Source: Bacteroides sp. CAG:530
Lineage (GTDB): Bacteria; Bacteroidota; Bacteroidia; Bacteroidales; Bacteroidaceae
Reading direction: 5' to 3'
Assembly: GCA_000434735.1 (NCBI GenBank)
Contig: FR881281.1
Coordinates: 12,777 to 76,776, forward strand
DNA length: 64,000 bases
The position numbers and the translations under genes were made by a program. Positions 3,564 through 57,209 of the stretch are shown one piece after another. The notes beneath the pieces are model-generated. The model did no database searches and was not told the origin of the DNA. It saw only the letters and a list, made by a program, of their open reading frames with translations. Position 1 is the stretch's first letter; each line of letters starts with the position of its first letter.

Positions 3564-3890
3564 ATTCAGATAATTAATGTTTCCTTTTTCTCCTTAAAAA
3601 CAGCTGGAATCTATCGGTATTACTAATACCTACATTGAAAACTTTTCGATACCGCTCAGTTTTTAACGGTGCAAAGATAAGTATTTTCAATACTCTTACA
3701 CAACTGTTTAACTAACAATAACCATAAAAAAACGGGGTGTTATTACACATAGGCAAAATAATCTGATGAATAGACATTTTTTATCGACCAATTCTTACGG
3801 CTCTTTATTATAATCTTATTTAGAACAACGCATTGCAAAAGCCGACAATCCGCGAAAGAAAAATCGGCTTATTAAAAGAAAAACTCTATC

Positions 3891-3970
3891 CCTAGCCTAA
3901 GTATATATATTCTTAAGCTAAGTTTATATATACCTAGGCTAAGTTTATATATCTTTAGGCTAAAGATAGA
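3891..3970. repeat. ~3.5 tandem copies of a 22-bp unit (consensus YTAGGCTAAGTTTATATAT + 2-3 nt), locus A
   Basis: Direct reading gives cctagcctaagtatatatattc / ttaagctaagtttatatatacc / taggctaagtttatatatctt / taggctaaagataga. It lies in the 640-bp divergent intergenic region between the RND adaptor and maeB. It is homologous to the array at 42200..42292. Confidence 0.7.
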
Positions 3971-4082
3971 GAATTGAATAAGAGAAAACAGGTTTTCATT
4001 CGCAAAAGAGAGAAGTTTCAATCCTGACATTCTAAAGTTGCCATAGCCGTACATTTTGGTTATATTACATATTTTTATACGA

Positions 4083-10565: not shown

Positions 10566-11360
10566 TTAATTATCCGCCTTGGCTTTTCCGGCACGGCGGT
10601 TCAATATAATAAGCAACACCAATATCACTATAAATATCAATGCTGAAAGTGGTCTCAGTTCGGGAGTAAGTCCGCCTTTACGCGCATCGGCATAGATATA
10701 GGTGGAAAGTGTTTCCAAACCTTGGTTACCGATGGTGAATACGGTAACGGCAAAATCATCGACCGAAATGGTAATGGCCAACAAGAATCCGCTTATCATT
10801 CCCGGACGAATCTCCGGGATGATGACCTTGCGCAACGCCTGCATCGGTGTAGCTCCCAAATCGAGTGCCGCCTCATAAAGATTAGGATTCATCTGCTTGA
10901 GGCGAGGCAATACGCTAAGCACTACATATGGAGTACAAAACGTGATGTGCGCCAGCACTACGGTGGTGAATCCTTGCGTAATACCCAACGATACGAACAG
11001 CAAGAACAATGAGATACCGGTAATGATATCACCGTTAAGGATAGGTATGGTATTTATAAATCCCACAGCCTTACGATTTCTTGCCTTAAGATTGTAGATG
11101 CCGATGGCGGCTATACTTCCTAATATGGTAGAAGCTGTAGCGGCTATCAATGCTATAAGAATGGTGTTTACAAAAGCGTTCATCAGCGAGTGATGCGCAC
11201 CGGTATTAAGCAGAGACTCGTATAGCTTTAAAGAGAATCCAGTCCAGTTGCCCAGCACCTTAGCTTCGGTAAACGAATAGATTACGATAATTCCGATTGG
11301 GGCATACAGCAAAATAAGCAATACCCACAGGTATACCTGCCCGATAATACGTTTTACCAT
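10566..11360 (-). CDS. potC: spermidine/putrescine ABC transporter permease
   Basis: 264 aa, 6 TM segments, EAA-loop (EAALDLGATPMQALRKVIIP), PotC-like. Confidence 0.85.
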   Translation of the reverse strand: MVKRIIGQVYLWVLLILLYAPIGIIVIYSFTEAKVLGNWTGFSLKLYESLLNTGAHHSLMNAFVNTILIALIAATASTILGSIAAIGIYNLKARNRKAVGFINTIPILNGDIITGISLFLLFVSLGITQGFTTVVLAHITFCTPYVVLSVLPRLKQMNPNLYEAALDLGATPMQALRKVIIPEIRPGMISGFLLAITISVDDFAVTVFTIGNQGLETLSTYIYADARKGGLTPELRPLSALIFIVILVLLIILNRRAGKAKADN

Positions 11361-23412: not shown

Positions 23413-23516
23413 CAAAGTTGTCTTACTTCGACCGAAGTAAGCACGTTGACCGTTCGATGTGAACGTTTACTTCGGTCGAAGTAAGCGTTCACATCGGTCG
23501 AAGTAAGACGACTTTG
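23413..23516. repeat. 104-bp complex nested palindromic element built on CTTACTTCG/CGAAGTAAG 9-mers
   Basis: The outer 22-bp arms (caaagttgtcttacttcgaccg / cggtcgaagtaagacgactttg) match with 1 mismatch. Inner palindromes are cttacttcgaccgaagtaag and gatgtgaacg..tttacttcggtcgaagtaag..cgttcacatc. It lies between the metF stop and the upstream gene start. Confidence 0.65.
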
Positions 23517-31896: not shown

Positions 31897-31975
31897 AATT
31901 CCTTTCGTAGAAGGAATTGATTCCTCTCGCAAAAGGAACGCATTCCTATCTAAGAAGGAATAACGCCAAATAAGC

Positions 31976-37984: not shown

Positions 37985-40900
37985 ATGAAAAACCGTATCT
38001 ATACCATCGTATTACTGACCTTGTGCTTTTGCCTTAATATAACAATGGCACAAGGTGCTGGTCATTCTAAAGATAACCTGCATTTTTCTCATATCTCTAT
38101 CAATAACGGGTTGTCGCAGAACACTATATTCGCCATCGCGCAAGATGCCAAAGGCTATATGTGGTTTGCTACGCACAATGGGGTCAACAAATACGATGGA
38201 TACGATTTTACTATCTATCAGAATAATCCGCAAGATTCTACCACCATAGCAAACGATATTATCCGCACGTTGGTGACCGACGACAAAGGACGCGTATGGA
38301 TAGGAACCGAAAGCGGTTTATCGTATTACAACGAAGAAAGAGACATCTTTGAGAATTTCTACTTAAAGAATAGCAAAACAGCTACGGTTTCAAGCATAGT
38401 CACGCTGTCCGACTCGCAACTATTGGTCAACGCCGAGGGACAACTTTACAGTTTCGACGCTAAGAGCAAGGCATTCTCACAACAGACATTGCCTACCGAC
38501 CTGCTGCAACTCAACGTAACCGCCCTTTACCGTACCGCACAAAGCATATATATAGGTACTGCCGAAAACGGAGTTTTCGTGTGGGATTATAAGGGCAAGC
38601 GCATTCAGCGTTTAAGCCTCAGCATAAGACACCGCATACAAGCACTTTTGCTGCAAAATCCAAGCACGCTATGGATTGCGACTGAGGGAGAAGGCTTATA
38701 CCGACTCAACCCACAAACCGGAGAGCAGAAACATTATGTACATTCGTACAATGAAGGCGATATCAGCTCAAACTTTATTCGTGCCTTATCAGTTGATACA
38801 AAAGGTTATTTATGGATAGGTACTTTCAATGACCTTAACGTGTATCATGAAAGTAGCGATAAGTTCACTGCCTACACACATAACCCCATCGACCCAGAAA
38901 GTTTGAGTCAGCGTTCGGTGCGCTGCATCTACAAGGATTCGCAGGGAGGTATGTGGCTCGGCACGTACTTTGGCGGTATTAACTATTATCACCCGCTAAA
39001 GAACCGCTTCCGAAATATACAGCGACTAACATATAAGAAGCAACTGAACGACAATGTGGTAAGTTGCATAGTAGAAGATAGTAAGCACAACTTATATATA
39101 GGTACCAACGATGGCGGCGTAAACTACTACGACCCGCATACCGATGAGGTTACTTACTATACTTTCAACAACAAACAAAGTCCCGTAGTAGAATCTAACA
39201 ACGTGAAATGTATCTCTATCGACGAGAAAAGGAACGTAGTGTACGTAGGTACCCACGCTGGAGGAATAAAGATAATACACCGTGCCGGAGGCAACATAGA
39301 ACATTGCTATAGCGAGAATAATCCATCGGCAACACAGAACATTTATTCACTGCTGCCGTATAAGGATAACATGCTATGGGCAGGAACATTAAACGGACTG
39401 TACCTGTTCAATAAAGACAGCAAAACATTTACGGCTGTAGATAAAGATGTTAACGGCAATGAGATTCCAGACGAACAGATTAACATCTTATTCCAGGATT
39501 CAAAGCGAAGACTTTGGATTGGAGGTAAAAACAGTCTGACTGTATATAAGATAACAGACAACGGACTGAAAGCCATAAAGATTTCTATCGACGGCTTCAA
39601 CAACATTGTAGCGGTACAAGACATTCACGAAGATGAAGAACATTGTCTATGGTTCTGTACGCAATGGGGACTTTACAAGCTGGATAGAGAAAAGCACGTT
39701 ATCACTCATTACACCACCAAAAACGGACTGCCCAACAATGTGATATACGGCATAGAAGAAGACTCTTACCATCATCTTTGGCTCAATACCAACCACGGAT
39801 TGAGTTGCCTCAACCCATCGAACGGACAATTCAGAAACTTCTCCGTAAACGACGGACTGCAGAGTAACCAGTTTAATCCGCACTCGCACTGCCGCACTGC
39901 CGACGGAAGCTTATACTTCGGAGGCATAAACGGAATTTCAACATTCCGTCCAGAACTGCTTACGTTCAACCCATTTACGCCAAAGCCGTTCTTTACTAAA
40001 TTCTACCTATATAATAAGGAGGTACATCCGGGCGACGAAAGCGGAATACTTAGCAAGAACATTTCAGATACTGATTTCAGATACTGAAAAGATTGTCTTG
40101 AAGCCGTCGCAACGCGCCTTTACACTGGAGTTTGTAGTAACCAACTTCATATCCGGACAGCATAACACGTTCTCTTATCAGCTGGAAGGTTATGACAAGG
40201 AATGGTATTACCTTAAAGGACATCAGCGAAGCGTATCGTACTCTAACCTGCCCGCAGGAACGTACCGTTTCCTAGTGAAAGCTGCCAATAACGACGGACA
40301 TTGGAGCAGCGAACCCGCCATGCTTACCATCAAGGTGCTGCCCGTATGGTATGCTACTTGGTGGGCGATACTGTTATTCGTTATCATAACGGTAGCGTTG
40401 ATGGCTATTATATTACGTTATTTCTGGGAACGGAAGTCGATGGAAGCACGCCTGAAACTTGAACAGAAAGAGAAATTGCACCAAGAAGAGATAGCACAGA
40501 TGAAGATGCGTTTCTTCATCAACATTTCGCATGAGTTGCGTACTCCGCTTACTCTTATCTTGGCGCCGATACAAGATATGCTGGCTAAAACTACCGATAA
40601 ATGGATGAAAGAGCAGTTGAACTACGTAAACCGTAACGCCAATCGCTTGCTCAACCTTGTAAATCAGTTAATGGACTACAGAAGAGCTGAGCTGGGAGTG
40701 TTTAAGCTAAAGGTAGAGCATACATGTATATATAAGACAGTAAAAGAAAACTTCATGTTCTACGAAAAGTTGGCTCGTACCAAGAACTTGGAGTATACGT
40801 TAATTTCAGATATAGAAGATAAGGAATGCTATGCCGACCCTAAATACGTAGAGCTTATACTGAACAACTTGCTGTCTAACGCCTTTAAATATACCGAAAA

Positions 40901-42056
40901 AGGTAGTATCACTGTTCGCCTCACCATAAAGGACGACCAACTGCAGCTGGAAGTAAGCGATACAGGATGCGGTATAGAGCAAGACAAGCACAAGCGAATA
41001 TTCGAACGCTTCTATCAGCTTAAGAACAACTATGTAGGTAGCGGTATCGGACTCTCATTGGTAGAGCGTTTGGTGGAATTGCATCACGGACATATAGAAT
41101 TGGTAAGCGAAAAGGGCAAAGGTAGTATATTTACCATCTATCTGCCGCAGAACCCTAACGCATACGCCGAAAACGAATTCTATGGCAGCAGCGAAGATGC
41201 GGAACCAGAAGAAGTACACTCTACCAACTCTAAAGAGATGTATATCATAAACACCGAGAAAGACGACAACACCACAGAAGAAGATACCGACAATAAGAAA
41301 GGATGTATCCTTGTGGTAGAAGACAACGAAGAGATACGCCATTATCTATATAGCGGATTACAGCCCAACTTCTGCATAAAACAGGCAGCCAACGGTGCCG
41401 AAGCACTCGACATTCTGAAGGATACACAGGTAGATATCGTGATAACCGATGTCATGATGCCAGTAATGGATGGTATAAAACTATGTAAGCAGATAAAGCA
41501 GAACATTGTAACCAGCCATATACCTGTTATCATCCTTTCGGCTAAGACCGATGTGAACGATCAGATGCAGGCCATGCAGACTGGAGCCGATGACTACATA
41601 GCCAAGCCGTTCTCGCTTAGCGTGCTAATAGCCAAAGTGCAGAACCGCATGCGCACTCGTGCCCGCATGATAGAGCATTACGCAAAATCAGCCGAGGTAG
41701 ACCCTGAAAAGATAACCTTCAACGCTATGGACGAGAAGTTACTGAAACGCGCCGTCGAAGTAGTGAAGGCCAATATGGATAATCCAGAATTCTCTGCCGA
41801 AGAGTTTGCACGCAATATGAATATGAGTCGCTCTAACCTTCACCTGAAGTTGAAAGGCGTAACCGGAGAATCGGCTATAGAGTTCATACGCAAGATTCGT
41901 TTTAACGAAGCTTGCCGCTTGCTGCGCGAAGGACAATACAGTATTTCCGAGATAAGCAGCATGGTTGGTTTCAACACACCGTCATACTTCTCTACGGTAT
42001 TCAAGAAGTACATGGGTTGCTTGCCTACAGAATACGTTAAGAAAGGCAACCGATAA
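37985..42056 (+). pseudogene. hybrid two-component system sensor kinase/response regulator (HTCS; beta-propeller + Y_Y_Y + TM + HisKA/HATPase + REC + AraC-HTH), interrupted by a +1 frameshift caused by a 13-bp tandem duplication
   Basis: ORF 37985..40087 (700 aa) carries the periplasmic propeller repeats and ends NISDTDFRY*. ORF 40098..42056 (652 aa) starts in the +1 frame with Y_Y_Y, TM, HELRTPL, HATPase, REC (VVEDNEEIR...DVMMP) and the AraC HTH. Deleting one of the two ATTTCAGATACTG copies at 40061-40086 joins them as ...NISDTEKIVLKPSQRAFTLEF... It starts 4 nt after the tatC stop. Confidence 0.75.
40061..40086 (+). repeat. perfect 13-bp tandem duplication (ATTTCAGATACTG x2) inside the HTCS gene
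   Basis: The copies lie at 40061-40073 and 40074-40086. The length is not a multiple of 3, and the duplication creates TGA at 40085-40087. Confidence 0.9.
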
Positions 42057-42199: not shown

Positions 42200-42292
42200 C
42201 TATAAACTTAGCCTAAGAATATGTATACTTAGCCTAAGTTTATATATTCTTAGTTTAAGTTTTTATATACTTAGGCTAAGTTTATAGAATTC
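42200..42292. repeat. 4 copies (first inverted) of the 22-bp TTAGGCTAAGTTTATATAT unit, locus B
   Basis: Units are ctataaacttagcctaag (inverted), cttagcctaagtttatatattc, ttagtttaagtttttatatac and ttaggctaagtttatagaattc. The three direct units align copy-for-copy with 3891..3955 at roughly 85-90 % identity. It lies between the HTCS terminator and the PUL promoter. Confidence 0.7.
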
Positions 42293-42562: not shown

Positions 42563-44767
42563 ATGAATAAACTTCATCTCTGTCTCATCGCAGCGATGGC
42601 GCTTACCGCGTGCACTGAAGACGACGAGACTCTAAAGGGTTCAGGAGTGATAGAGGGTACTATCATGCCGACTGAAAAGCCCAATGATGTTATCACTGAA
42701 GGCATTTTTGAAAAGTTAAATCTCGACTACCCAGGGTTGGAAAAAGTGAAAGCTTACCACGAGGCTGGTCAAGATTATTACGCATGCTATGAATTGTTGC
42801 AGTACTATCGCAACCGTAGCAACGTAATCAACCCAAGCATCGACTTGATTAACACATCTTACTCTGCCGCAGAAAAAGCTATGGCCGACCAAGCTCTGCT
42901 GCATCAGTTCTATGTTCGCGGCTTTTCTGCCGACTTAGGCGCAGACAATAAGCAAGGAACTTCTGATGACACATTCTACAAATTCGAGAAGAAAGACGAA
43001 AACGGACAAACTGTTATCGACTGGGATTTGCAGGTAGAAGGAGTAACCAGCGCAGAATTCAAATATCAGCGTCACCGTTGGCAGTGGATGGAACCGCAGG
43101 CCAAGACATATCGCGTAACCAAAAACGAAGATTATATCAAGAATTGGATAGAGACCTACCAAAGCTGGATGAATACTTATCCATGCCCTAACGCAAAATT
43201 CGACGATAACGAAACTGATAAGAACTCAAACTATCAGTGGAAAGGACTGCAGACTGCCGAACGTTTGCTGTCGCAGCTTAACGTAATGCAGTACTATCTG
43301 CAATCTACCAACTTCACACCCGAATGGCTTTCTACATTCTTGATTTCTATAGCCGATCATGTAGAAATGATTCGCAAGAACTACTATCAGACTCCGGGCG
43401 ACAACATTCGCTTAAGCCAGATACAAGCCGTATTTACAGCAGGAGTATTGATGCCGGAATTTAAGAACGCCACAGAATGGACAAACGAAGCATCTACTAT
43501 GCTCGATACGGAAATAGGTTCTCAGTTCCTTGAAGACGGTGTACATGCCGATCTCGACCCGAGCTATCACATCGGTTCAGTAAGCAACTGCCTCAGCCTC
43601 TATTATCTGTTGTCGCTTAACGATAAGACAGATTTGCTGCCGGCTTCGTTCGTATCGAAGCTGAAAAACGCTACTAACTTCCTGAAAGACATAATCTATC
43701 CAAACTATACTATCGACAATTACAACGATACCCGTTCAGACAGATTAGGTAAGAGCATTCAGATTAAGAACTTCAAGAAATACAGCGAAATCTATCCAGA
43801 CGATGAAGAAATGAAGTACATGGCATACGAACGTGCCAAAGGCACTGTGCCTTCGTACACTACTAAAGCATATTCGGCAGCAGGTTACTACATGCTTCGT
43901 AGCGGTTGGACAGAAAACTCTACCATGATGGTACTGAAGAATAACTATAATCCTGAAGCTAAATGGCACTGCCAGCCGGATAATCAGACATTCAGCCTAT
44001 ACCGCAACGGACGTATATTCTTCCCCGATGCAGGATGTCATGGATACGAAGGTGACCCGTTACGCAAAGATTTCGCAGCGGCAGTAAACCACAACACTTT
44101 GACCGCATTGAGTAAAGACCCAGACGCAACTCACCGTAAAGGAAAGTTCCTTACCATGTATACAGAAAAAATGAACGGTGTAAATGTTGACGTTCTTTCT
44201 ACTCAGTTCGAGATGAAAGAAGGTTTGACTCACCGTCGTACAGTATTCTTCGTTAATAAGGCATTCTTCGTTATTGCCGATGAAGCATTTGGTGATGGAA
44301 ACAAAGACAAGGTGAACTTGAACTTCCACATGATTACAACTGATGAATGTCCTACAGTAGCCGATGCTGACGCTGACAAGAAAACAGCAGGACTCCACAC
44401 TACCTTTACCGACGGTAACAATATGGTATTGCGTTCTTTCTACGCTGAAGGCTCTACAACCGGAGCGCTTGAAGGTAAAATAGACAACAAGGAAACAGAA
44501 GTATGGAATAATACTGCTGATGCCATTTCTAAAGCAAGCGGAAAGCGTTTAGGCATGAAATTCAATGTTCGTAAGCCTATCAACGGAGCATCTCGCCTCA
44601 TCACTATCATCAAACCGATAGACGGAGCTTATGACGCAAACATGGAACTCGACGCTAAGTTTACCGACAACACGGAAGAGACACGCAATACGTTCCATGC
44701 CGACGGCGTGACACTGCAAGTTACAGTAGACGGCAAGACTTATAATTTGCAAGCAAAAATAAAATAA
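42563..44767 (+). CDS. heparinase III-family (PL12-like) polysaccharide lyase, lipoprotein
   Basis: 734 aa with a signal + lipobox (LTAC). It shares paralog-like blocks with the 53531 gene (LNLDYPGLEKVK, HRWQWM, WHCQPDN, HRRTVFFVN, FVIADEAFG), typical of heparinase II/III-like (alpha/alpha-toroid + beta-sandwich) lyases. Confidence 0.75.
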   Translation: MNKLHLCLIAAMALTACTEDDETLKGSGVIEGTIMPTEKPNDVITEGIFEKLNLDYPGLEKVKAYHEAGQDYYACYELLQYYRNRSNVINPSIDLINTSYSAAEKAMADQALLHQFYVRGFSADLGADNKQGTSDDTFYKFEKKDENGQTVIDWDLQVEGVTSAEFKYQRHRWQWMEPQAKTYRVTKNEDYIKNWIETYQSWMNTYPCPNAKFDDNETDKNSNYQWKGLQTAERLLSQLNVMQYYLQSTNFTPEWLSTFLISIADHVEMIRKNYYQTPGDNIRLSQIQAVFTAGVLMPEFKNATEWTNEASTMLDTEIGSQFLEDGVHADLDPSYHIGSVSNCLSLYYLLSLNDKTDLLPASFVSKLKNATNFLKDIIYPNYTIDNYNDTRSDRLGKSIQIKNFKKYSEIYPDDEEMKYMAYERAKGTVPSYTTKAYSAAGYYMLRSGWTENSTMMVLKNNYNPEAKWHCQPDNQTFSLYRNGRIFFPDAGCHGYEGDPLRKDFAAAVNHNTLTALSKDPDATHRKGKFLTMYTEKMNGVNVDVLSTQFEMKEGLTHRRTVFFVNKAFFVIADEAFGDGNKDKVNLNFHMITTDECPTVADADADKKTAGLHTTFTDGNNMVLRSFYAEGSTTGALEGKIDNKETEVWNNTADAISKASGKRLGMKFNVRKPINGASRLITIIKPIDGAYDANMELDAKFTDNTEETRNTFHADGVTLQVTVDGKTYNLQAKIK

Positions 44768-47073: not shown

Positions 47074-50000
47074 ATGCATCAATACACTATAAAATCGGCA
47101 AGCAAAAGAGGGTTCATCACCCTCCTTGCCTTGATGATGTCTGTATGTCTGTACGCTCAGCGAATAACACTGAACGGTGTTGTTATAGACGAGACAGACC
47201 AACCGCTTATCGGTGCTACCGTACAAGTTGTGGGTACACCCGATGGTACCATTACCGATTTCGACGGTAACTTCTCTCTGAAAGTTAAGAAAGGAGCAAA
47301 GATTACTTTCTCTTACGTAGGATACTTAAGCAAAACCTTGACTTTCCAAGGACAGAACAAAGTAACCGTAAAACTGGAACCGGACAACAAGACTTTGGAA
47401 GAAGTAGTAGTTGTAGGTTACGGCGCTATGAAACGTAGCGACTTGACAGGATCTCTTTCATCAGTAGGTGGAAAAGACATCGAGGGTTATAAAACAAGTA
47501 ACTTGGCGGGAGCGTTGAGCGGCCAGGTTGCTGGTGTTCAGATTACCCAGACCGATGGTGCGCCGGGTTCTGGCTTCAACATCAACATCCGTGGTGTAGG
47601 TACCTTGACTGGTGATAATGCACCTCTTTATATAGTAGACGGTTTCCAGGTAGACGATATCAGCTATCTGTCTGACTCGGATATCGAAGACATCTCTGTA
47701 TTGAAAGATGCTTCTTCGGCTGCTATCTACGGTTCTCGCGCTGCAAACGGTGTTATCTTGATCTCTACCAAGCAGGGTAAGGAAAGCAAGCCTATCATTA
47801 CTTATAAGGGCTCTGCCACTTACCGTAGCATCGCTAAGAAACTCAATTTGCTTAGCCCGTACGAATTCGTAAAACTGCAGGGTGAAATCAACGATAAATA
47901 CTTGACCTCTTACTTCCAGGAAGGAAATGACTCTGAAGGCAACCCATACCGTTATCAATCGCTCGACGACTTTATCGGTGTAGAAGGTATCGACTGGCAA
48001 GACCAGACTTTCAATCCTACTTGGTCTACCGATCATAACGTAAGCATCATCGGTGGTACTGACAAGTCTAAATATTCAGGCTCTCTGTCGCGCTACGTAG
48101 AAGAAGGTATCTTCAACAACAGTGGTTTCGACAAGACTACCGGAAAGCTTCGTTATACTAACAAGCTCACTAAGAAGGTATCATTGGATGTTACATTCAA
48201 CTATGCCCAGACTAACCGTAAAGGTGTAGGTACATCGGCCGACTCTGGTCGTTTCAACATGTTGGCACAGATTATCAGTGCACGTCCTACCGCAGGTAAC
48301 CGCATGACTGATGACGAATTGCTGAACGCTTTCATCGACCCAACTATGTTGGAAGACGGAAACGATAATATCGCACAGGTAAACCCTGTATTGCAGACTG
48401 AAAACGTTACTAACAAGAAACGCTCTGAATATTGGTCGGCTAACGGTGCTGTAAACTGGGAAATCAGAAAAGGATTGACTTTCCGTACTGCTGCCACTTA
48501 CAACACTACCAACACCAGAACAGACATATTCTACTCTCAGAAGACAAAAGAAGCATACCGTAACGGTGGTAAGCCTTATGGTTCAAGCCAGATGCAACGC
48601 GATTCACGCTGGGTAAACAGTAACACCTTGACTTGGAAACAGAAGATTAAAAAACATCAGTACGATGTAATGTTGGGTCATGAAGTTTCACACAAGACTA
48701 CAGAGTACTTATACGGTCAGGCAATGGATTTCCCATTCGATAACCTGGGCAACAATAACTTAGGTCTTGGAGCTACTCCGAGCAAAGTAAATTCTGATTA
48801 TAGCGACAACTCGCTGCTTTCATTCTTTGCACGTGCCAACTACAACTACGACAACCGCTACTTGTTCACTGCAACAATGCGTGCCGATGGTTCTACAGTA
48901 TTCTCTAAGAACAATAAATGGGGATACTTCCCTTCATTCTCTGCCGCATGGCGTGTTTCTGAAGAAAAGTTCATGAAGAACTTGGATTGGATTTCTAACA
49001 TGAAGTTGCGTTTAGGATGGGGTCTTGTAGGTAACGACCGTATCAAGAACTACTTGTCGCTTGATCTTTATACAGACTCTAAATACGGTGTAGGAAACCA
49101 AATAGTAACTGTATTGACTCCGAAGCAGCTGCGTAACAGTGACTTGAAGTGGGAGGCATCTTCTACTGTCAACGCAGGTATAGACTTGGGCTTCTTCGCT
49201 AACCGCTTGAGCTTGACTGCCGACTTCTTTATCAAGAACACCAAAGACTTGCTGTTAGCACAGTCGTTGGCACACGTAACAGGTTTCGATTCTCAGTGGC
49301 AAAACGTAGGTAAGATTCAGAATAGAGGTATTGAATTAAGTATCAACAGCACAAACATTCAGTCTAAGAACTTCACTTGGCAAACCAACTTCAACATTTC
49401 GTTCATCCATAACGAATTGAAATCGTTGGCATCGGGAGTAGACGCAATGTATGCACGTTCAGGATTCGACGGCAACTTTACTTCTTACGACTACATCGCA
49501 AAAGTAGGCGAATCACTGGGCTTAATATACGGTTATGAATTCGACGGTATCTACCAATACTCTGATTTCAACCAGACTCCTGACGGAAAATGGATATTGA
49601 AAGAAGGTGTAGTAAATAACGCCGGATACAAAACTAAAAATACAAACTTGGAACCGGGATGCGTGAAATACAAAGACCAGGACGGCGACGGTGAAATCAC
49701 TACTAAAGACCGTACGGTAATTGGTAACACACTGCCTAAGTGGTATGGTGGTATCACCAACAATTTCAACTTCAAGGGTGTAGACTTCAGCTTCATGTTC
49801 CAGTTTAACTACGGTAACGATTTATACAACGCAACCCGTCTGTACAGTACTCAGACTCGTTTGGGCCGTCGTAACATGATGGCGGAAGTAGCAGACCGTT
49901 GGTCCGCCTACAAACGCATCTAACCTCGTTCCGAAGACAAACGGTTACATCACCAACGAAGTATATTCACGTTTCGTAGAAGACGGCTCATTCCTCCGTT

Positions 50001-50230
50001 TGAAGAACGTAACTTTGGGATATACCATTCCGCAGAAACTTACTAAGAAGTTCTATGTACAGAAACTCCGCGTATACGGAAGCGCACAGAACTTGTTCTG
50101 CCTGAGCAAATATAGCGGTTACGACCCAGAAGTAAGTACAGCTGCAAACAACCCGATGACACCGGGACTTGACTGGGGTGCATATCCTAAGAGCCGTATC
50201 TTCACAATAGGACTTGATTTACAATTCTAA
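47074..50230 (+). pseudogene. SusC-like TonB-dependent transporter, apparent +1 frameshift near 49900-49907
   Basis: ORF 47074..49923 (949 aa) carries the carboxypeptidase-regulatory-like, plug and barrel domains and ends ...ADRWSAYKRI*. ORF 50000..50230 is the canonical SusC C-terminus (...GLDWGAYPKSRIFTIGLDLQF), and its frame is open from 49892. Reading W-S in frame 1 and then PTNASNLVPKTNGYITNEVYSRFVEDGSFLRLKNVTLGYTIPQ in frame 2 restores a normal SusC; one extra nucleotide (around g49906) explains it. Confidence 0.7.
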
Positions 50231-52211: not shown

Positions 52212-53534
52212 ATGAAAAAACTGATTGCATTTGCTGCGGCAGCCATTGCTCTTGCCTCATGCCAGACTCAACCAAAAGAAGATTACAGCTGGATTAAAAA
52301 CGGACTTGATGTAGCACAACAGCAACTGATGCTTGCTGCTCACGAAGCTGAAGGAACAGGTAAATTGCCTCGTACTACTTATCAGAGTTACGACATGAAC
52401 TTCCTCTGCGAACAGTTGGAAAGAGATTCTGCAACATTTAAAGACTCATTGCGTCAGTCTGCTCCTGCCGAAAAAGTAGGAAAGATGAAACTCTGCACAG
52501 TGAAAGACTGGACAAGCGGATTCTTCCCAGGTTCTTTATGGTATGCATACGAATTGACAGGAAATGACTCGTTGAAAACAGAGGCTATAGAATATACTAA
52601 CTTGCTGAACCCAGTACGCTATTATAGAGGTACTCACGACTTGGGCTTCATGATTAACTGCAGCTATGGTAACGCACTTCGTCTTACCAAGAACGATACA
52701 ATTGCTGCAGTAATGCACGAAACCGCCGATAACCTCTGCAGCCGATTCAACGAAGGTATCGGTTGTATCCGTTCATGGGACTTCGGTACATGGAATTTCC
52801 CGGTTATCATCGACAACATGATGAACCTCGACTTGCTCTTCACTGTAAGCAAACTTACAAACGACGATAAATATAAAAACGTTGCTATCACCCACGCTAA
52901 CACTACCATGAAAAATCACTTCCGTCCGGACTACACTTCATGGCACGTAGTAAGCTATAACAATGACGGTACAGTAGAACGCAAACAGACTTTCCAAGGA
53001 AAGAACGACGACTCTGCATGGAGCCGCGGCCAGGGATGGGGCGTATACGGATATACAGCTTGCTTCCGTGAAACAAACGATTCTACTTACTTGAAATTCG
53101 CATGCAATATTGCAGATATGATTATGAGCCGTGTTAAGACAGACGACGCTATTCCTTACTGGGATTATATGGCTCCTGTAACTCCTGAAACTCCGCGCGA
53201 CGCATCGGCTGCAGCTGTTACAGCTTCTGCCATGTTAGAACTTAGCACATTCGTTGCCGACGGACAGAAATACTTTGACTACGCAGAAAAGATTCTGAAG
53301 AGTTTGTCGAGCGACGCTTATTTGGCTAAGCCAGGCACAAACGGCGGCTTCATCTTGATGCACTCTACAGGTTCTTTGCCTAACGGAAGTGAAATCGATG
53401 TTCCTTTGAACTATGCTGACTACTACTACTTGGAAGCTCTGAAGAGATACATGGATTTAAAGCACATTTCATACAAAATACATGGATTTGAAGCACATTT
53501 CATACAAAGACCTTTAATAATAAGTAATTCATGA
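52212..53534 (+). CDS. glycoside hydrolase family 88 (unsaturated glucuronyl hydrolase), lipoprotein; C-terminus altered by a 31-bp tandem duplication
   Basis: 440 aa with a lipobox (LASC) and GH88 alpha6/alpha6 motifs (SGFFPGSLWYAYELTG, RGQGWGVYGYTA). The last ~20 codons are read through a duplicated segment, and the stop overlaps the next gene's ATG (ATGA). Confidence 0.8.
   Translation: MKKLIAFAAAAIALASCQTQPKEDYSWIKNGLDVAQQQLMLAAHEAEGTGKLPRTTYQSYDMNFLCEQLERDSATFKDSLRQSAPAEKVGKMKLCTVKDWTSGFFPGSLWYAYELTGNDSLKTEAIEYTNLLNPVRYYRGTHDLGFMINCSYGNALRLTKNDTIAAVMHETADNLCSRFNEGIGCIRSWDFGTWNFPVIIDNMMNLDLLFTVSKLTNDDKYKNVAITHANTTMKNHFRPDYTSWHVVSYNNDGTVERKQTFQGKNDDSAWSRGQGWGVYGYTACFRETNDSTYLKFACNIADMIMSRVKTDDAIPYWDYMAPVTPETPRDASAAAVTASAMLELSTFVADGQKYFDYAEKILKSLSSDAYLAKPGTNGGFILMHSTGSLPNGSEIDVPLNYADYYYLEALKRYMDLKHISYKIHGFEAHFIQRPLIISNS
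53447..53508 (+). repeat. 31-bp tandem duplication (atacatggattt[a/g]aagcacatttcatacaaa x2, 30/31 identical) at the 3-prime end of the GH88 gene
   Basis: The copies lie at 53447-53477 and 53478-53508. 31 nt gives a +1 frame change, so the tail reads ...RYMDLKHISYKIHGFEAHFIQRPLIISNS* instead of ...RYMDLKHISYKDL*. Confidence 0.9.
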
Positions 53535-55528
53535 AATTAAAACATATAGCATTAAGCATAGTAGCTTGTATCGGTATGGCACAAGCTACTGCACAAGAGC
53601 TTAAAACGGAAGTTTTCTCTTTGCTGAACCTTAATTATCCAGGTTTGGAGAAAGTTAAGTCTTTGCACGAATCAGGAAAAGACAAAGATGCTGCACAGGC
53701 ATTGCTCGATTATTACCGCGCACGTACCAACATCAAGACTCCTGATATTAACCTGAATAAGATTACTATCGGTAAGGAAGAACAGAAGTGGGCCGACGAC
53801 GCTATGGAGCATACATTCTTCGTACATAAAGGCTACCAGCCATCGTTCAACTACGGAAAGGACATCAACTGGAAATACTGGCCTGTACAAGATAACGAAT
53901 TGCGTTGGCAGCTTCACCGTCACAAATGGTTTACTCCGATGGGTAAAGCATATCGCGTGTCGGGCGACGAGAAGTATGCTAAAGAATGGGCCGCTCAATA
54001 TATCGACTGGATTAAGAAAAACCCGTTGGTATCTATCGACAAGAAAGAATATGAACTGACAAGCAACGAAACCCTGAAAGGCGATGTAGAAAACATGCGT
54101 TTCGCTTGGCGTCCGCTGGAAGTTAGTAACCGCCTGCAAGACCAGACTACACAGTTCCAGTTGTTCTTGCCGTCTCCTTCGTTCACTCCGGAATTCCTTA
54201 CCGAGTTCCTTGTAAACTACTACAAGCACGCTGTTCATATCCTGAACAACTACTCAGACCAAGGAAACCACTTGCTGTTCGAAGCACAGCGTATCATCTA
54301 CGCCGGAACATTCTTCCCAGAATTCAAGGACGCTTCTGCATGGAGACAGAGCGGTATCGGTATCTTGAACCGCGAAATCAAAGTTCAGGTTTACGATGAC
54401 GGTGGACAGTTCGAGCTCGACCCGCACTATCACTTGGCATCAATCAACATTTTCTGCAAGGCTTTGTACATAGCAGATATGAACGGATTCCGCAATGATT
54501 TCCCGCAGAGCTACATGGATACAGTAGAAAACATGATTATGTTCTACCTGAACATCTGTTTCCCCGACTATACCAATCCTTGCTTCAGCGACGCTAAGCT
54601 GACAACAAAGAGAGAAATGGTCAAGAACTACAAAGAATGGAGCAAATTGTTCCCAAAGAATAAGGCTATCTTATACTTCGCAAGCGAAGGCAAAAAAGGA
54701 GAACTTCCTGCATACTTGTCTAAAGGTTTCTTGAAATCAGGTTTCTTTGTATTCAGAAACTCTTGGGGTGAAGACGCAACTCAGATGGTAGTTAAGGCTG
54801 GTCCGAAAGCATTCTGGCACTGTCAGCCCGATAACGGTACATTCGAGATGTGGTTCAACGGAAAGAATCTGTTCCCCGACTCTGGTTCTTATGTATACGC
54901 CGGAAGCAAGGAAGTAAACGAAGAACGTAATTGGTTCCGCCAAACTGCGGTTCACAACACACTTACTCTGAACAACAAGAATCTTGACCAGACAAATTCT
55001 AAGACTCTGTTGTGGCAGCCCGAAGGCGATATTCAGACACTTGTTACTGAAAACCCGAGCTACAAGAACCTTACTCACCGTCGTAGCATCTTCTTTGTAA
55101 ACAACACATATTTCGTGATTGTAGACGAAGCTATCGGTGCAGCAAAAGGCTTTGTAAACTTGCACTACCAAATGCCGAAAGGTAAGATTGCCAATAGTCG
55201 TGAAGACATGACTTTCATTACCGAGTTTGAAAGCGGAAGCAACATGAAGTTGCAGTGCTTCGGTCCTGACGGCATGAGCATGAAGAAAGAAGAAGGTTGG
55301 GCATCTACAGCTTACCGCAAGAAATTCAAACGTATGAATGTTTCATTCAACGTTAAGAAAGAAAACGATGCGGTACGTTACATCACCATCATCTATCCGA
55401 TGAAAGACAGCGCAGATGCGCCTGCTATGTCGGCTAAGTTCAAGACTAAGAAATTCGACGGTAAGAACTTGGAAGTTGAAGTAAAAGTAGGTGGCAAGAA
55501 ACAATCTTTGAAATATACCTTGCAATAA
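53531..55528 (+). CDS. heparinase III (PL12-family heparin/heparan-sulfate lyase)
   Basis: 665 aa with a signal peptide. Its size and motifs match HepIII-type enzymes (LNLNYPGLEKVK, HRHKWF, WHCQPDN, HRRSIFFVN). Confidence 0.8.
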   Translation: MKLKHIALSIVACIGMAQATAQELKTEVFSLLNLNYPGLEKVKSLHESGKDKDAAQALLDYYRARTNIKTPDINLNKITIGKEEQKWADDAMEHTFFVHKGYQPSFNYGKDINWKYWPVQDNELRWQLHRHKWFTPMGKAYRVSGDEKYAKEWAAQYIDWIKKNPLVSIDKKEYELTSNETLKGDVENMRFAWRPLEVSNRLQDQTTQFQLFLPSPSFTPEFLTEFLVNYYKHAVHILNNYSDQGNHLLFEAQRIIYAGTFFPEFKDASAWRQSGIGILNREIKVQVYDDGGQFELDPHYHLASINIFCKALYIADMNGFRNDFPQSYMDTVENMIMFYLNICFPDYTNPCFSDAKLTTKREMVKNYKEWSKLFPKNKAILYFASEGKKGELPAYLSKGFLKSGFFVFRNSWGEDATQMVVKAGPKAFWHCQPDNGTFEMWFNGKNLFPDSGSYVYAGSKEVNEERNWFRQTAVHNTLTLNNKNLDQTNSKTLLWQPEGDIQTLVTENPSYKNLTHRRSIFFVNNTYFVIVDEAIGAAKGFVNLHYQMPKGKIANSREDMTFITEFESGSNMKLQCFGPDGMSMKKEEGWASTAYRKKFKRMNVSFNVKKENDAVRYITIIYPMKDSADAPAMSAKFKTKKFDGKNLEVEVKVGGKKQSLKYTLQ

Positions 55529-55604: not shown

Positions 55605-57209
55605 ATGAAAACAGTATCTCAAGCAGCATTGTGCCTTCCTTTAGTGGCACTGAATTTAACAAGCTGCGCAACCCAAAAAAAAGAAGAGCCGAAACAGCCG
55701 AACATTATTTTTATAATGACCGACGACCATACCACTCAGGCTATGTCTTGCTACGGAGGAAATCTTATCCAGACTCCAAACATGGACCGCATCGCCAATG
55801 AAGGTATCCGTTTCGACAACTGCTATGCAGTAAACGCCCTTTCAGGTCCGTCAAGAGCCTGCGTACTGACAGGTAAATTCAGCCACATGAATGGCTTTAC
55901 AGACAACGCTTGTAAATTCAACGGCGATCAGCAGACATTCCCGAAACTATTGCAGAAAGCAGGATACGAAACTTCTATCATCGGAAAATGGCATCTTATC
56001 TCTGAACCACAAGGATTCGACTACTGGAGTGTCTTAAGCGGACAAGAAGAACAAGGTGACTACTACGATCCTGACTTCTGGGAAAACGGTAAACACATAA
56101 CAGAAAAAGGTTATGTAACCGATATTATCACAGACAAGGCGATAAAATGGATGGAAGGACGCGACAAGAGCAAACCGTTCTGCATGATGTTCCACGAAAA
56201 AGCGCCTCATCGCGACTGGATGCCGGCTCCACGTCATTTAGGTATATTCAACGACGTTACTTTCCCCGAACCAGAGAATCTGTTCGATGACTACAAGGGA
56301 AGACAAGCTGCAGCCGAACAAGACATGTCGATTGCCAAGACTCTGAGAGAAGACTGGGACTTGAAACTTCTTACTCACGACGAAATAGTAAACGGAAAGT
56401 CAAGACTGCGCGATGTCTATATGCGTATGCCGGAAGATGTTCAGCACAAATGGGATTCTGTTTATGCACCACGTATCGCAGAATATCGCAAAGGCAACTT
56501 GAAAGGCAAAGAATTGATAAGCTGGAAATATCAGCAATACATGCGCGATTATCTGGCAACCGTTCTTTCTGTAGACGAAAACATCGGACGATTGCTTGAT
56601 TATCTGAGCGAAACAAATCAGTTGGACAACACTATCATAGTTTATACTTCCGACCAAGGCTTCTTCTTGGGAGAACACGGATGGTTCGACAAGCGATTCA
56701 TGTACGAAGAATGCCAGCGTATGCCGCTTATCATACGTTACCCCAAAGCTATTAAGGCAGGTTCTGTAAGCTCGGCTATCAGTATGAACGTTGACTTCGC
56801 TCCTACATTCCTCGACTTTGCAGGTGTTGATATACCGGAAGATATTCAGGGTAAATCATTGAAGCCTATCCTCGAAAACGAAGGAAAGACTCCTGCCGAT
56901 TGGCGCAAGGCTGCCTACTATCATTATTATGAATATCCGGCAGAACACTCAGTTAAACGTCACTACGGAATACGCACACAAGACTTTAAGTTGATTCATT
57001 TCTATAATGACATCGATGTTTGGGAAATGTACGACATGAAGAAAGATCCGCATGAGATGAACAACATCTTTGGCAACCCTGACTATGCCGACAAGCAGCA
57101 AGAACTGATGCAGCTGTTGAAAGAGACTCAGGAACAATATAAAGATACCGACCCCGACGAAAAAGAAAAAGTACTTTTCAAGGGCGACCGTAGATATATG
57201 AAACGATAA
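55605..57209 (+). CDS. S1-family sulfatase, Ser-type (formylglycine motif S-G-P-S-R)
   Basis: 534 aa with a lipobox (LTSC). The sulfatase signature is NALSGPSRACVLTG, and the metal-binding motifs are IFIMTDDHT and GKWHL. Confidence 0.9.
   Translation: MKTVSQAALCLPLVALNLTSCATQKKEEPKQPNIIFIMTDDHTTQAMSCYGGNLIQTPNMDRIANEGIRFDNCYAVNALSGPSRACVLTGKFSHMNGFTDNACKFNGDQQTFPKLLQKAGYETSIIGKWHLISEPQGFDYWSVLSGQEEQGDYYDPDFWENGKHITEKGYVTDIITDKAIKWMEGRDKSKPFCMMFHEKAPHRDWMPAPRHLGIFNDVTFPEPENLFDDYKGRQAAAEQDMSIAKTLREDWDLKLLTHDEIVNGKSRLRDVYMRMPEDVQHKWDSVYAPRIAEYRKGNLKGKELISWKYQQYMRDYLATVLSVDENIGRLLDYLSETNQLDNTIIVYTSDQGFFLGEHGWFDKRFMYEECQRMPLIIRYPKAIKAGSVSSAISMNVDFAPTFLDFAGVDIPEDIQGKSLKPILENEGKTPADWRKAAYYHYYEYPAEHSVKRHYGIRTQDFKLIHFYNDIDVWEMYDMKKDPHEMNNIFGNPDYADKQQELMQLLKETQEQYKDTDPDEKEKVLFKGDRRYMKR

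Follow-up and report, generated by a model that had tools for sequence, protein, structure and literature searches.

A 31-bp tandem duplication at the end of a GH88 gene of Bacteroides sp. CAG:530 is rather likely to be a local error of one metagenome-derived assembly and not a feature of the organism. We favour this reading because the duplication is absent from all other conspecific sequences, has no homology at its junctions and lies at a spot where assemblies recurrently break. If it is an artefact, the true gene would encode an ordinary GH88 protein of 424 aa with a 13-nt spacer before the lyase gene that follows, and the 18-residue tail and ATGA overlap described below would consequently exist only in the record. 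The analysis covers a window of 64,000 nt, meaning the whole stretch of DNA that was analysed, and coordinates refer to it. Whether read as an artefact or as real, the duplication shows nothing new in kind.

The duplication and its effect on the GH88 gene

The features at the site are as follows.

52212..53534, + strand: GH88 ORF (BT4658-like unsaturated glucuronyl hydrolase), 440 aa in the record, 424 aa if only one copy is kept
53447..53477, + strand: copy 1 of the 31-bp unit, with the private A53459 giving codon TTA, which, like the usual TTG, codes for Leu in the frame read
53478..53508, + strand: second 31-bp copy, with the sequence that all relatives have in their single copy, read in the +1 frame as IHGFEAHFIQ
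53515..53517, + strand: ancestral GH88 TAA stop (...KDL, stop), read through in the shifted frame
53531..55528, + strand: heparinase II/III-family lyase ORF (BT4657-like), 665 aa, its ATG inside the new ATGA overlap

The duplication, first described in a sequence-only reading of the window, is present as reported. Positions 53447-53477 (ATACATGGATTTAAAGCACATTTCATACAAA) and 53478-53508 (ATACATGGATTTGAAGCACATTTCATACAAA) are head-to-tail copies of the unit ATACATGGATTT[A/G]AAGCACATTTCATACAAA, identical at 30 of 31 positions, and the sole mismatch falls at base 13 of the unit (A53459 versus G53490). Tandem Repeats Finder agrees (period 31, 2.0 copies, 96% matches, score 117) and finds no other period-31 array in the 64 kb. 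By chance, an adjacent repeat matching at 30/31 positions would be expected about 3e-8 times per window. The two copies meet at CATACAAA followed directly by ATACATGG, and in the single-copy form one unit is followed by AAAGACC. A check of the 31-bp junctions for microhomology found no base in common, there being a G before copy 1, an A as the last base of the unit and a G after copy 2.

The ORF is assigned to the GH88 unsaturated glucuronyl hydrolase family by a sequence match that extends over the whole catalytic domain. It matches PF07470 at 37.8 bits (cut-off 26.6) and PF16386 (DUF4995) with E = 1.7e-38, and residues 68-422 align to PDB 3WIW from Pedobacter heparinus with E = 3e-119, the last helix NYADYYYLEALKRY included. 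The solved 3WIW chain stops five residues past the aligned block, whereas the window protein adds 18 unrelated residues.

Because 31 is +1 mod 3, the second copy shifts the reading frame, and the new tail and the overlap between stop and start codons are as originally described. The statement that the duplication rewrites the C-terminus was too strong, however. Copy 1 keeps the native frame as far as K422, where the alignment to 3WIW also ends; of the native protein just the terminal DL is lost, in exchange for a tail of 18 residues, a net gain of 16. After copy 2 the shifted frame runs through the old spacer as RPLIISNS, so that the 440-aa protein ends in ...HISYKIHGFEAHFIQRPLIISNS before its stop. 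The change is a tail in place of DL beyond the structure-aligned part, with no truncation. The new TGA (53532-53534) overlaps the ATG (53531-53533) of the heparinase II/III-family ORF. Removal of either copy gives the 424-aa protein, ending ...HISYKDL, with its stop at 53515-53517.

Single-copy relatives of the window

The comparison included seven clone-mates of the window (L002, L003, L023, L024, L026, L028 and L029) and other conspecifics 96.6-98.9% identical to it (L006, L007, L008, L009, L020, L022 and L025, counted as six separate contigs). When the duplication was sought in these related strains, as the sequence-only reading had advised, it was found in none of the 13 conspecific contigs, all of which have a single copy and at least seven of which agree with the window at all remaining bases of the region. 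Each of the 13 has G at the variable position, and the A is private to the window. A search of the JGI metagenomes with a 28-mer spanning the junction gave no matches, in a collection where the positive control found just two conspecific contigs; a pattern search that permitted A or G at the variable base returned G only. The exact 440-aa product has no record in an exact-protein look-up; the adjacent heparinase III protein (665 aa) has an exact match on 13 contigs.

The closest relatives are close indeed. The extra copy and A53459 are all that sets the window apart from L024 (5.8 kb) and L026 (5.0 kb), and L002, compared over 21.3 kb, differs only by the extra copy with A53459 and by a TAC indel. 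In other parts of the window, L011-L014 match it at 100% identity across 3.1-11.9 kb (11.9 kb for L011). Divergence among clone-mates amounts to about one substitution per 13-20 kb. It had been proposed that the mismatch between the copies makes the duplication not brand new, but L024, L026 and L002 contradict this, being single-copy and otherwise identical apart from the TAC indel in L002. The existence of such near-identical single-copy clone-mates implies that the duplication is either extremely recent or not real; if real, it would have arisen after the window's lineage parted from L024 and L026, since no other difference is found in 5-6 kb.

At the protein level, the recommended comparison with orthologues found that the long tail is not shared. 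All conspecific GH88 proteins seen have 423-425 aa and end in KDL or KDLK. The conserved last-helix motif could be placed in 118 homologues; in most of these it is followed by 15-16 residues, compared with 31 in the window, and clearly longer tails occur in only two of them, both aberrantly long products (724 and 756 aa). No match to the 18-residue tail was found among 8000 scored homologues or in any conspecific, and no conservation of the shifted frame or of the stop/start overlap was found in relatives. A protein search with the last 42 residues of the GH88 product returned no candidates, for the native part likewise. The distance from the GH88 stop to the lyase ATG is 10-13 nt in relatives, and L001, the sole match (69% identity) in a genome-collection scan with the BT4661-like protein, has a spacer of about 150 nt.

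Strains of the species also differ at the GH88 stop (window 53512-53517), which reads CTT TAA (...DL, stop) in the clone, L008 and L009, CTT AAA TAA (...DLK, stop) in L006, L007 and L020, and CTC TAA in L022 and L025.

The heparin/heparan-sulfate locus and its two other lesions

The GH88 gene lies in a cluster ordered HTCS, PL12-type lyase, BT4661-like surface glycan-binding protein, SusC, SusD, GH88 and heparinase II/III-family lyase, followed by a sulfatase, a ROK kinase, an MFS transporter and a further lyase-like protein. Its assignment is based on Pfam domains in ten consecutive ORFs and on the same gene order in relatives, and a SusC/SusD pair, an HTCS, PL12/PL15-type lyases, GH88 and a sulfatase in one cluster are the components of a PUL. 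The heparin/heparan-sulfate locus of B. thetaiotaomicron comprises BT4652-BT4675, with the GH88 enzyme BT4658 and the PL12 enzyme BT4657 (PMC9067506). The window matches it in components and in gene order; unlike that locus, it has an HTCS split by a 13-bp duplication, a SusC shortened by an extra C, and a GH88 tail that is absent from relatives. The first two are placed as follows.

40061..40087, + strand: perfect 13-bp tandem duplication in the HTCS gene, splitting it into ORFs 37985..40087 and 40098..42056
49904..49905, + strand: extra C in susC (CC versus a single C in intact relatives), a +1 frameshift truncating SusC (47074..49923)

Both lesions, noted earlier from the sequence, have proved to be real. 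Removing one 13-bp copy restores an HTCS of 1352 aa, the split falling at residue 700 of 1352, and the exact 700-aa fragment is found on at least five contigs from other samples; L004 and L005 are one base from the window. Without one C at 49904/49905, susC encodes 1051 aa ending in LDLQF (full region 47074-50230), compared with 949 aa as written. The susC insertion is common to L002 and L003, and susC is intact in L006, L007 and L009 (97% strains). Both lesions have been recovered repeatedly, in independent assemblies that stem from several samples and include a recent run (SRR29904083).

It had been suggested that the 31-bp duplication is the third +1 lesion of this locus. This holds for the frame shift, but it is doubtful that the three are of the same kind, for independent assemblies repeat the HTCS and susC lesions, and none repeats the 31-bp duplication. 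Like the HTCS duplication, which exemplifies frameshifting short tandem repeats made by replication slippage, the 31-bp duplication is head-to-tail, coding and not a multiple of three in length. The two copies in the HTCS gene, however, match perfectly and share 1 nt at their junction (2.1 copies), and they are found again in the contigs from other samples mentioned above, in contrast to the imperfect 31-bp repeat, which lacks junction homology.

A working locus would need an intact sensor-regulator and an intact transporter, and the window has neither. The locus would already be disabled, because the HTCS and susC lesions are real and common to clone-mates, and judging from these sequences heparin/heparan-sulfate use has probably been lost in a clone of this gut species that is in circulation. 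The locus is thus of modest interest as that of one clone of a common human-gut Bacteroides/Phocaeicola species, present in several samples, with two reproducible lesions in its heparin sensor-regulator and transporter. As a separate observation, L003 lacks 21 nt (in frame, seven residues) of the first PL12 lyase gene (window 43175-43195; L003 position 984), which is either another real indel or a low-coverage assembly error.

A role for the duplication in this locus can be imagined in three forms: an extension of the GH88 C-terminus under selection, coupling of its translation to that of the lyase through ATGA, or a duplication that switches reversibly on and off. The new stop does overlap the downstream start, and short tandem duplications are able to revert. 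We nevertheless consider such a functional change extremely improbable, as there is zero conservation, the tail is unique among the scored homologues and all conspecifics, and with the sensor-regulator and transporter broken there is little left to tune. Hardly any credence can be given, either, to the elaborate version in which the duplication is real and forms, together with the HTCS 13-bp duplication, a reversible off/on set for the heparin/heparan-sulfate locus of a widespread gut Phocaeicola/Bacteroides clone, with ATGA newly coupling translation of GH88 and the lyase.

Origin of the second copy

The main competitor to an assembly error is a real, very recent and near-neutral tandem duplication produced by replication slippage or unequal exchange, which we regard as possible but somewhat doubtful. 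It would be tolerated because the locus is already off, with its split HTCS and truncated SusC, and because the fold is intact. Several observations are in its favour: the two other frame-breaking lesions are genuine and common to independent assemblies, the clone-mates differ by more indels in the locus (TAC ×2 or ×3, and the 21-nt PL12 deletion in L003), the native GH88 sequence is retained to the last 3WIW-aligned residue, and A53459 leaves the encoded residue unchanged (TTA = Leu in the frame read). In addition, a new junction in a short-read graph assembly requires reads. If the duplication is real, selection on it would probably be relaxed, because the sensor-regulator and transporter of the locus are already broken; GH88 would keep its whole fold and gain a tail, terminating ribosomes would stop on the start codon of the lyase, and the outcome would be just a near-neutral tail on an enzyme of an already silent locus.

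A genuine mutation of the lineage might be expected to be present in independent sequences, to have identical copies if recent, and to show short homology at its junctions; none of these was found. Besides its absence from the conspecific contigs and from the exact-protein look-up, a real duplication would need a second private change, G to A, in the new copy, in a clone where L024 and L026 (5-6 kb) and L011 (11.9 kb) are otherwise identical to the window. At clone-mate divergence, a second independent substitution inside 62 bp would be improbable. There is also no microhomology at the junction, and the site is where other assemblies break.

The breaks are associated with a short tract upstream of the duplication.

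53421..53429, + strand: TAC ×3 tract (YYY), 18 nt upstream of the duplication, ×2/×3 polymorphic among clone-mates, with assemblies breaking at or beside it

TAC is present twice in three clone-mate contigs (L002 at 11210-11215, L003 and L028) and three times in four (L023, L024, L026 and the window). From the aligned sequences, this difference is a polymorphism within the clone that is separate from the duplication, because there are clone-mates with TAC ×3 and a single copy. A single complex event behind all three features (TAC difference, duplication and mismatch) is excluded by these contigs (L023, L024 and L026), nor can the window be turned into L002 by deleting one block of 34 nt, the TAC indel marking a different sub-lineage. 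The tract codes for the conserved YYY of the last GH88 helix, and the ×2 form loses one Tyr of this cross-species-conserved motif.

Two contigs have an end less than 60 nt from the duplication: the first base of L029 falls within the TAC tract, about 23 nt before the duplication, and that of L028 about 45 nt before it. For contigs of 3-4 kb such ends are unlikely to be a coincidence, and they point to a graph break at the TAC polymorphism. Both things to be expected of an artefact are thus seen: absence from other assemblies of the clone, and a position at a recurrent assembly break. At its other end L028 has 42 mismatches in its last 185 nt (3585-3768; window about 57019-57203) after 3.5 kb of identity, a pattern suggesting either that the contig end is chimeric or that a recombination boundary lies in the sulfatase gene.

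The origin of the record is also relevant. Four window proteins are exact matches to proteins of Bacteroides sp. CAG:530 (CDA76041.1, CDA76062.1, CDA76091.1 and CDA76092.1, with accession order the same as gene order), a metagenome-derived assembly from 2014. The CAG genomes of Nielsen et al. 2014 are said to be co-abundance assemblies of MetaHIT gut samples. Several of the clone-mate contigs are re-assemblies of the same cohort; the sample of L002 is labelled NIEL14, and L014 and L029 come from MetaHIT run ERR321079 (PRJEB4336). A single sample, ERZ1310036, yielded both clone-mate L024 and L010, which is 94.8% identical to the window. The assembly steps given in a paper that applies the Nielsen 2014 CAG method are read recruitment, Velvet and then gap filling with SOAPdenovo GapCloser (PMC4563136), and the pipeline of CAG:530 is taken to be that of this follower. 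We found no usable literature on duplications introduced by GapCloser.

An assembly error could have arisen in the following way. The strain would have been co-resident with variants differing in TAC ×2 or ×3, at a place where other assemblers break their contigs, and the upstream and downstream pieces would have overlapped by 31 nt. One piece may have carried a base error (A for G), for which one error-bearing read could suffice; the mismatch would block merging, leaving the overlap unrecognised. Once the pieces were abutted, or the gap between them "closed", a head-to-tail copy would remain. The joining step itself is one that we infer.

Duplications from unmerged overlaps or gap closure do occur in scaffolded short-read assemblies, and the present case resembles them in being a short head-to-tail copy, in one assembly only, at a break site and with a mismatch that would block merging. 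It is unlike that class, and this speaks against an artefact, in that the window has no N runs; nor does the window contain any further duplication of this kind, and the join is known from the finished sequence alone. De Bruijn assemblers normally invent no junction without read support, so that the new junction would need such support in a graph assembler. Moreover, the clone-mates have real indels in this locus (13 bp, 1 bp, 3 bp and 21 nt), and a 31-bp event would be in character. As a numerical observation, the TAC tract ends exactly 30 nt before A53459, and the unit has a length of 31 nt, a common k-mer size; no specific assembler mechanism was derived from this.

Another scenario is a chimera of two co-resident alleles, in which copy 1 derives from a strain with TTA and copy 2 from the main clone with TTG, joined either by the assembler or by real unequal recombination. 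Samples do hold more than one variant, as illustrated by TAC ×2 and ×3 and by the pair L024 and L010 in ERZ1310036, and the A/G difference changes no amino acid in the native frame, which is typical of natural polymorphisms. However, with A in none of the 13 conspecific contigs and only G returned by the A/G-tolerant pattern search, we judge a chimera very unlikely. A two-haplotype source of the mismatch was accordingly dropped as the main reading, G being the base in every conspecific contig.

The assembly-error reading carries a general caution, which is that a frameshift in one old metagenome-derived reference should not be taken as gene decay until it has been found in reads or in a second assembly.

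Finally, we note that the window contains other short repeats. The same 21-bp unit, TAG[G/C]CTAAGTTTATATATACT, forms two arrays in the same orientation, at 3893-3963 (3.4 copies) and 42201-42286 (4.1 copies), both intergenic and preceding genes of the + strand (the ORF at 4056 and the PL12 lyase gene at 42563). Two 22-bp tandem arrays, at 23423-23507 and 31898-31961, have internally palindromic units (TTACTTCGGTCGAAGTAAGCGT and ATTCCTATCGAAGAAGGAATGC) and look like small intergenic hairpin repeat elements.
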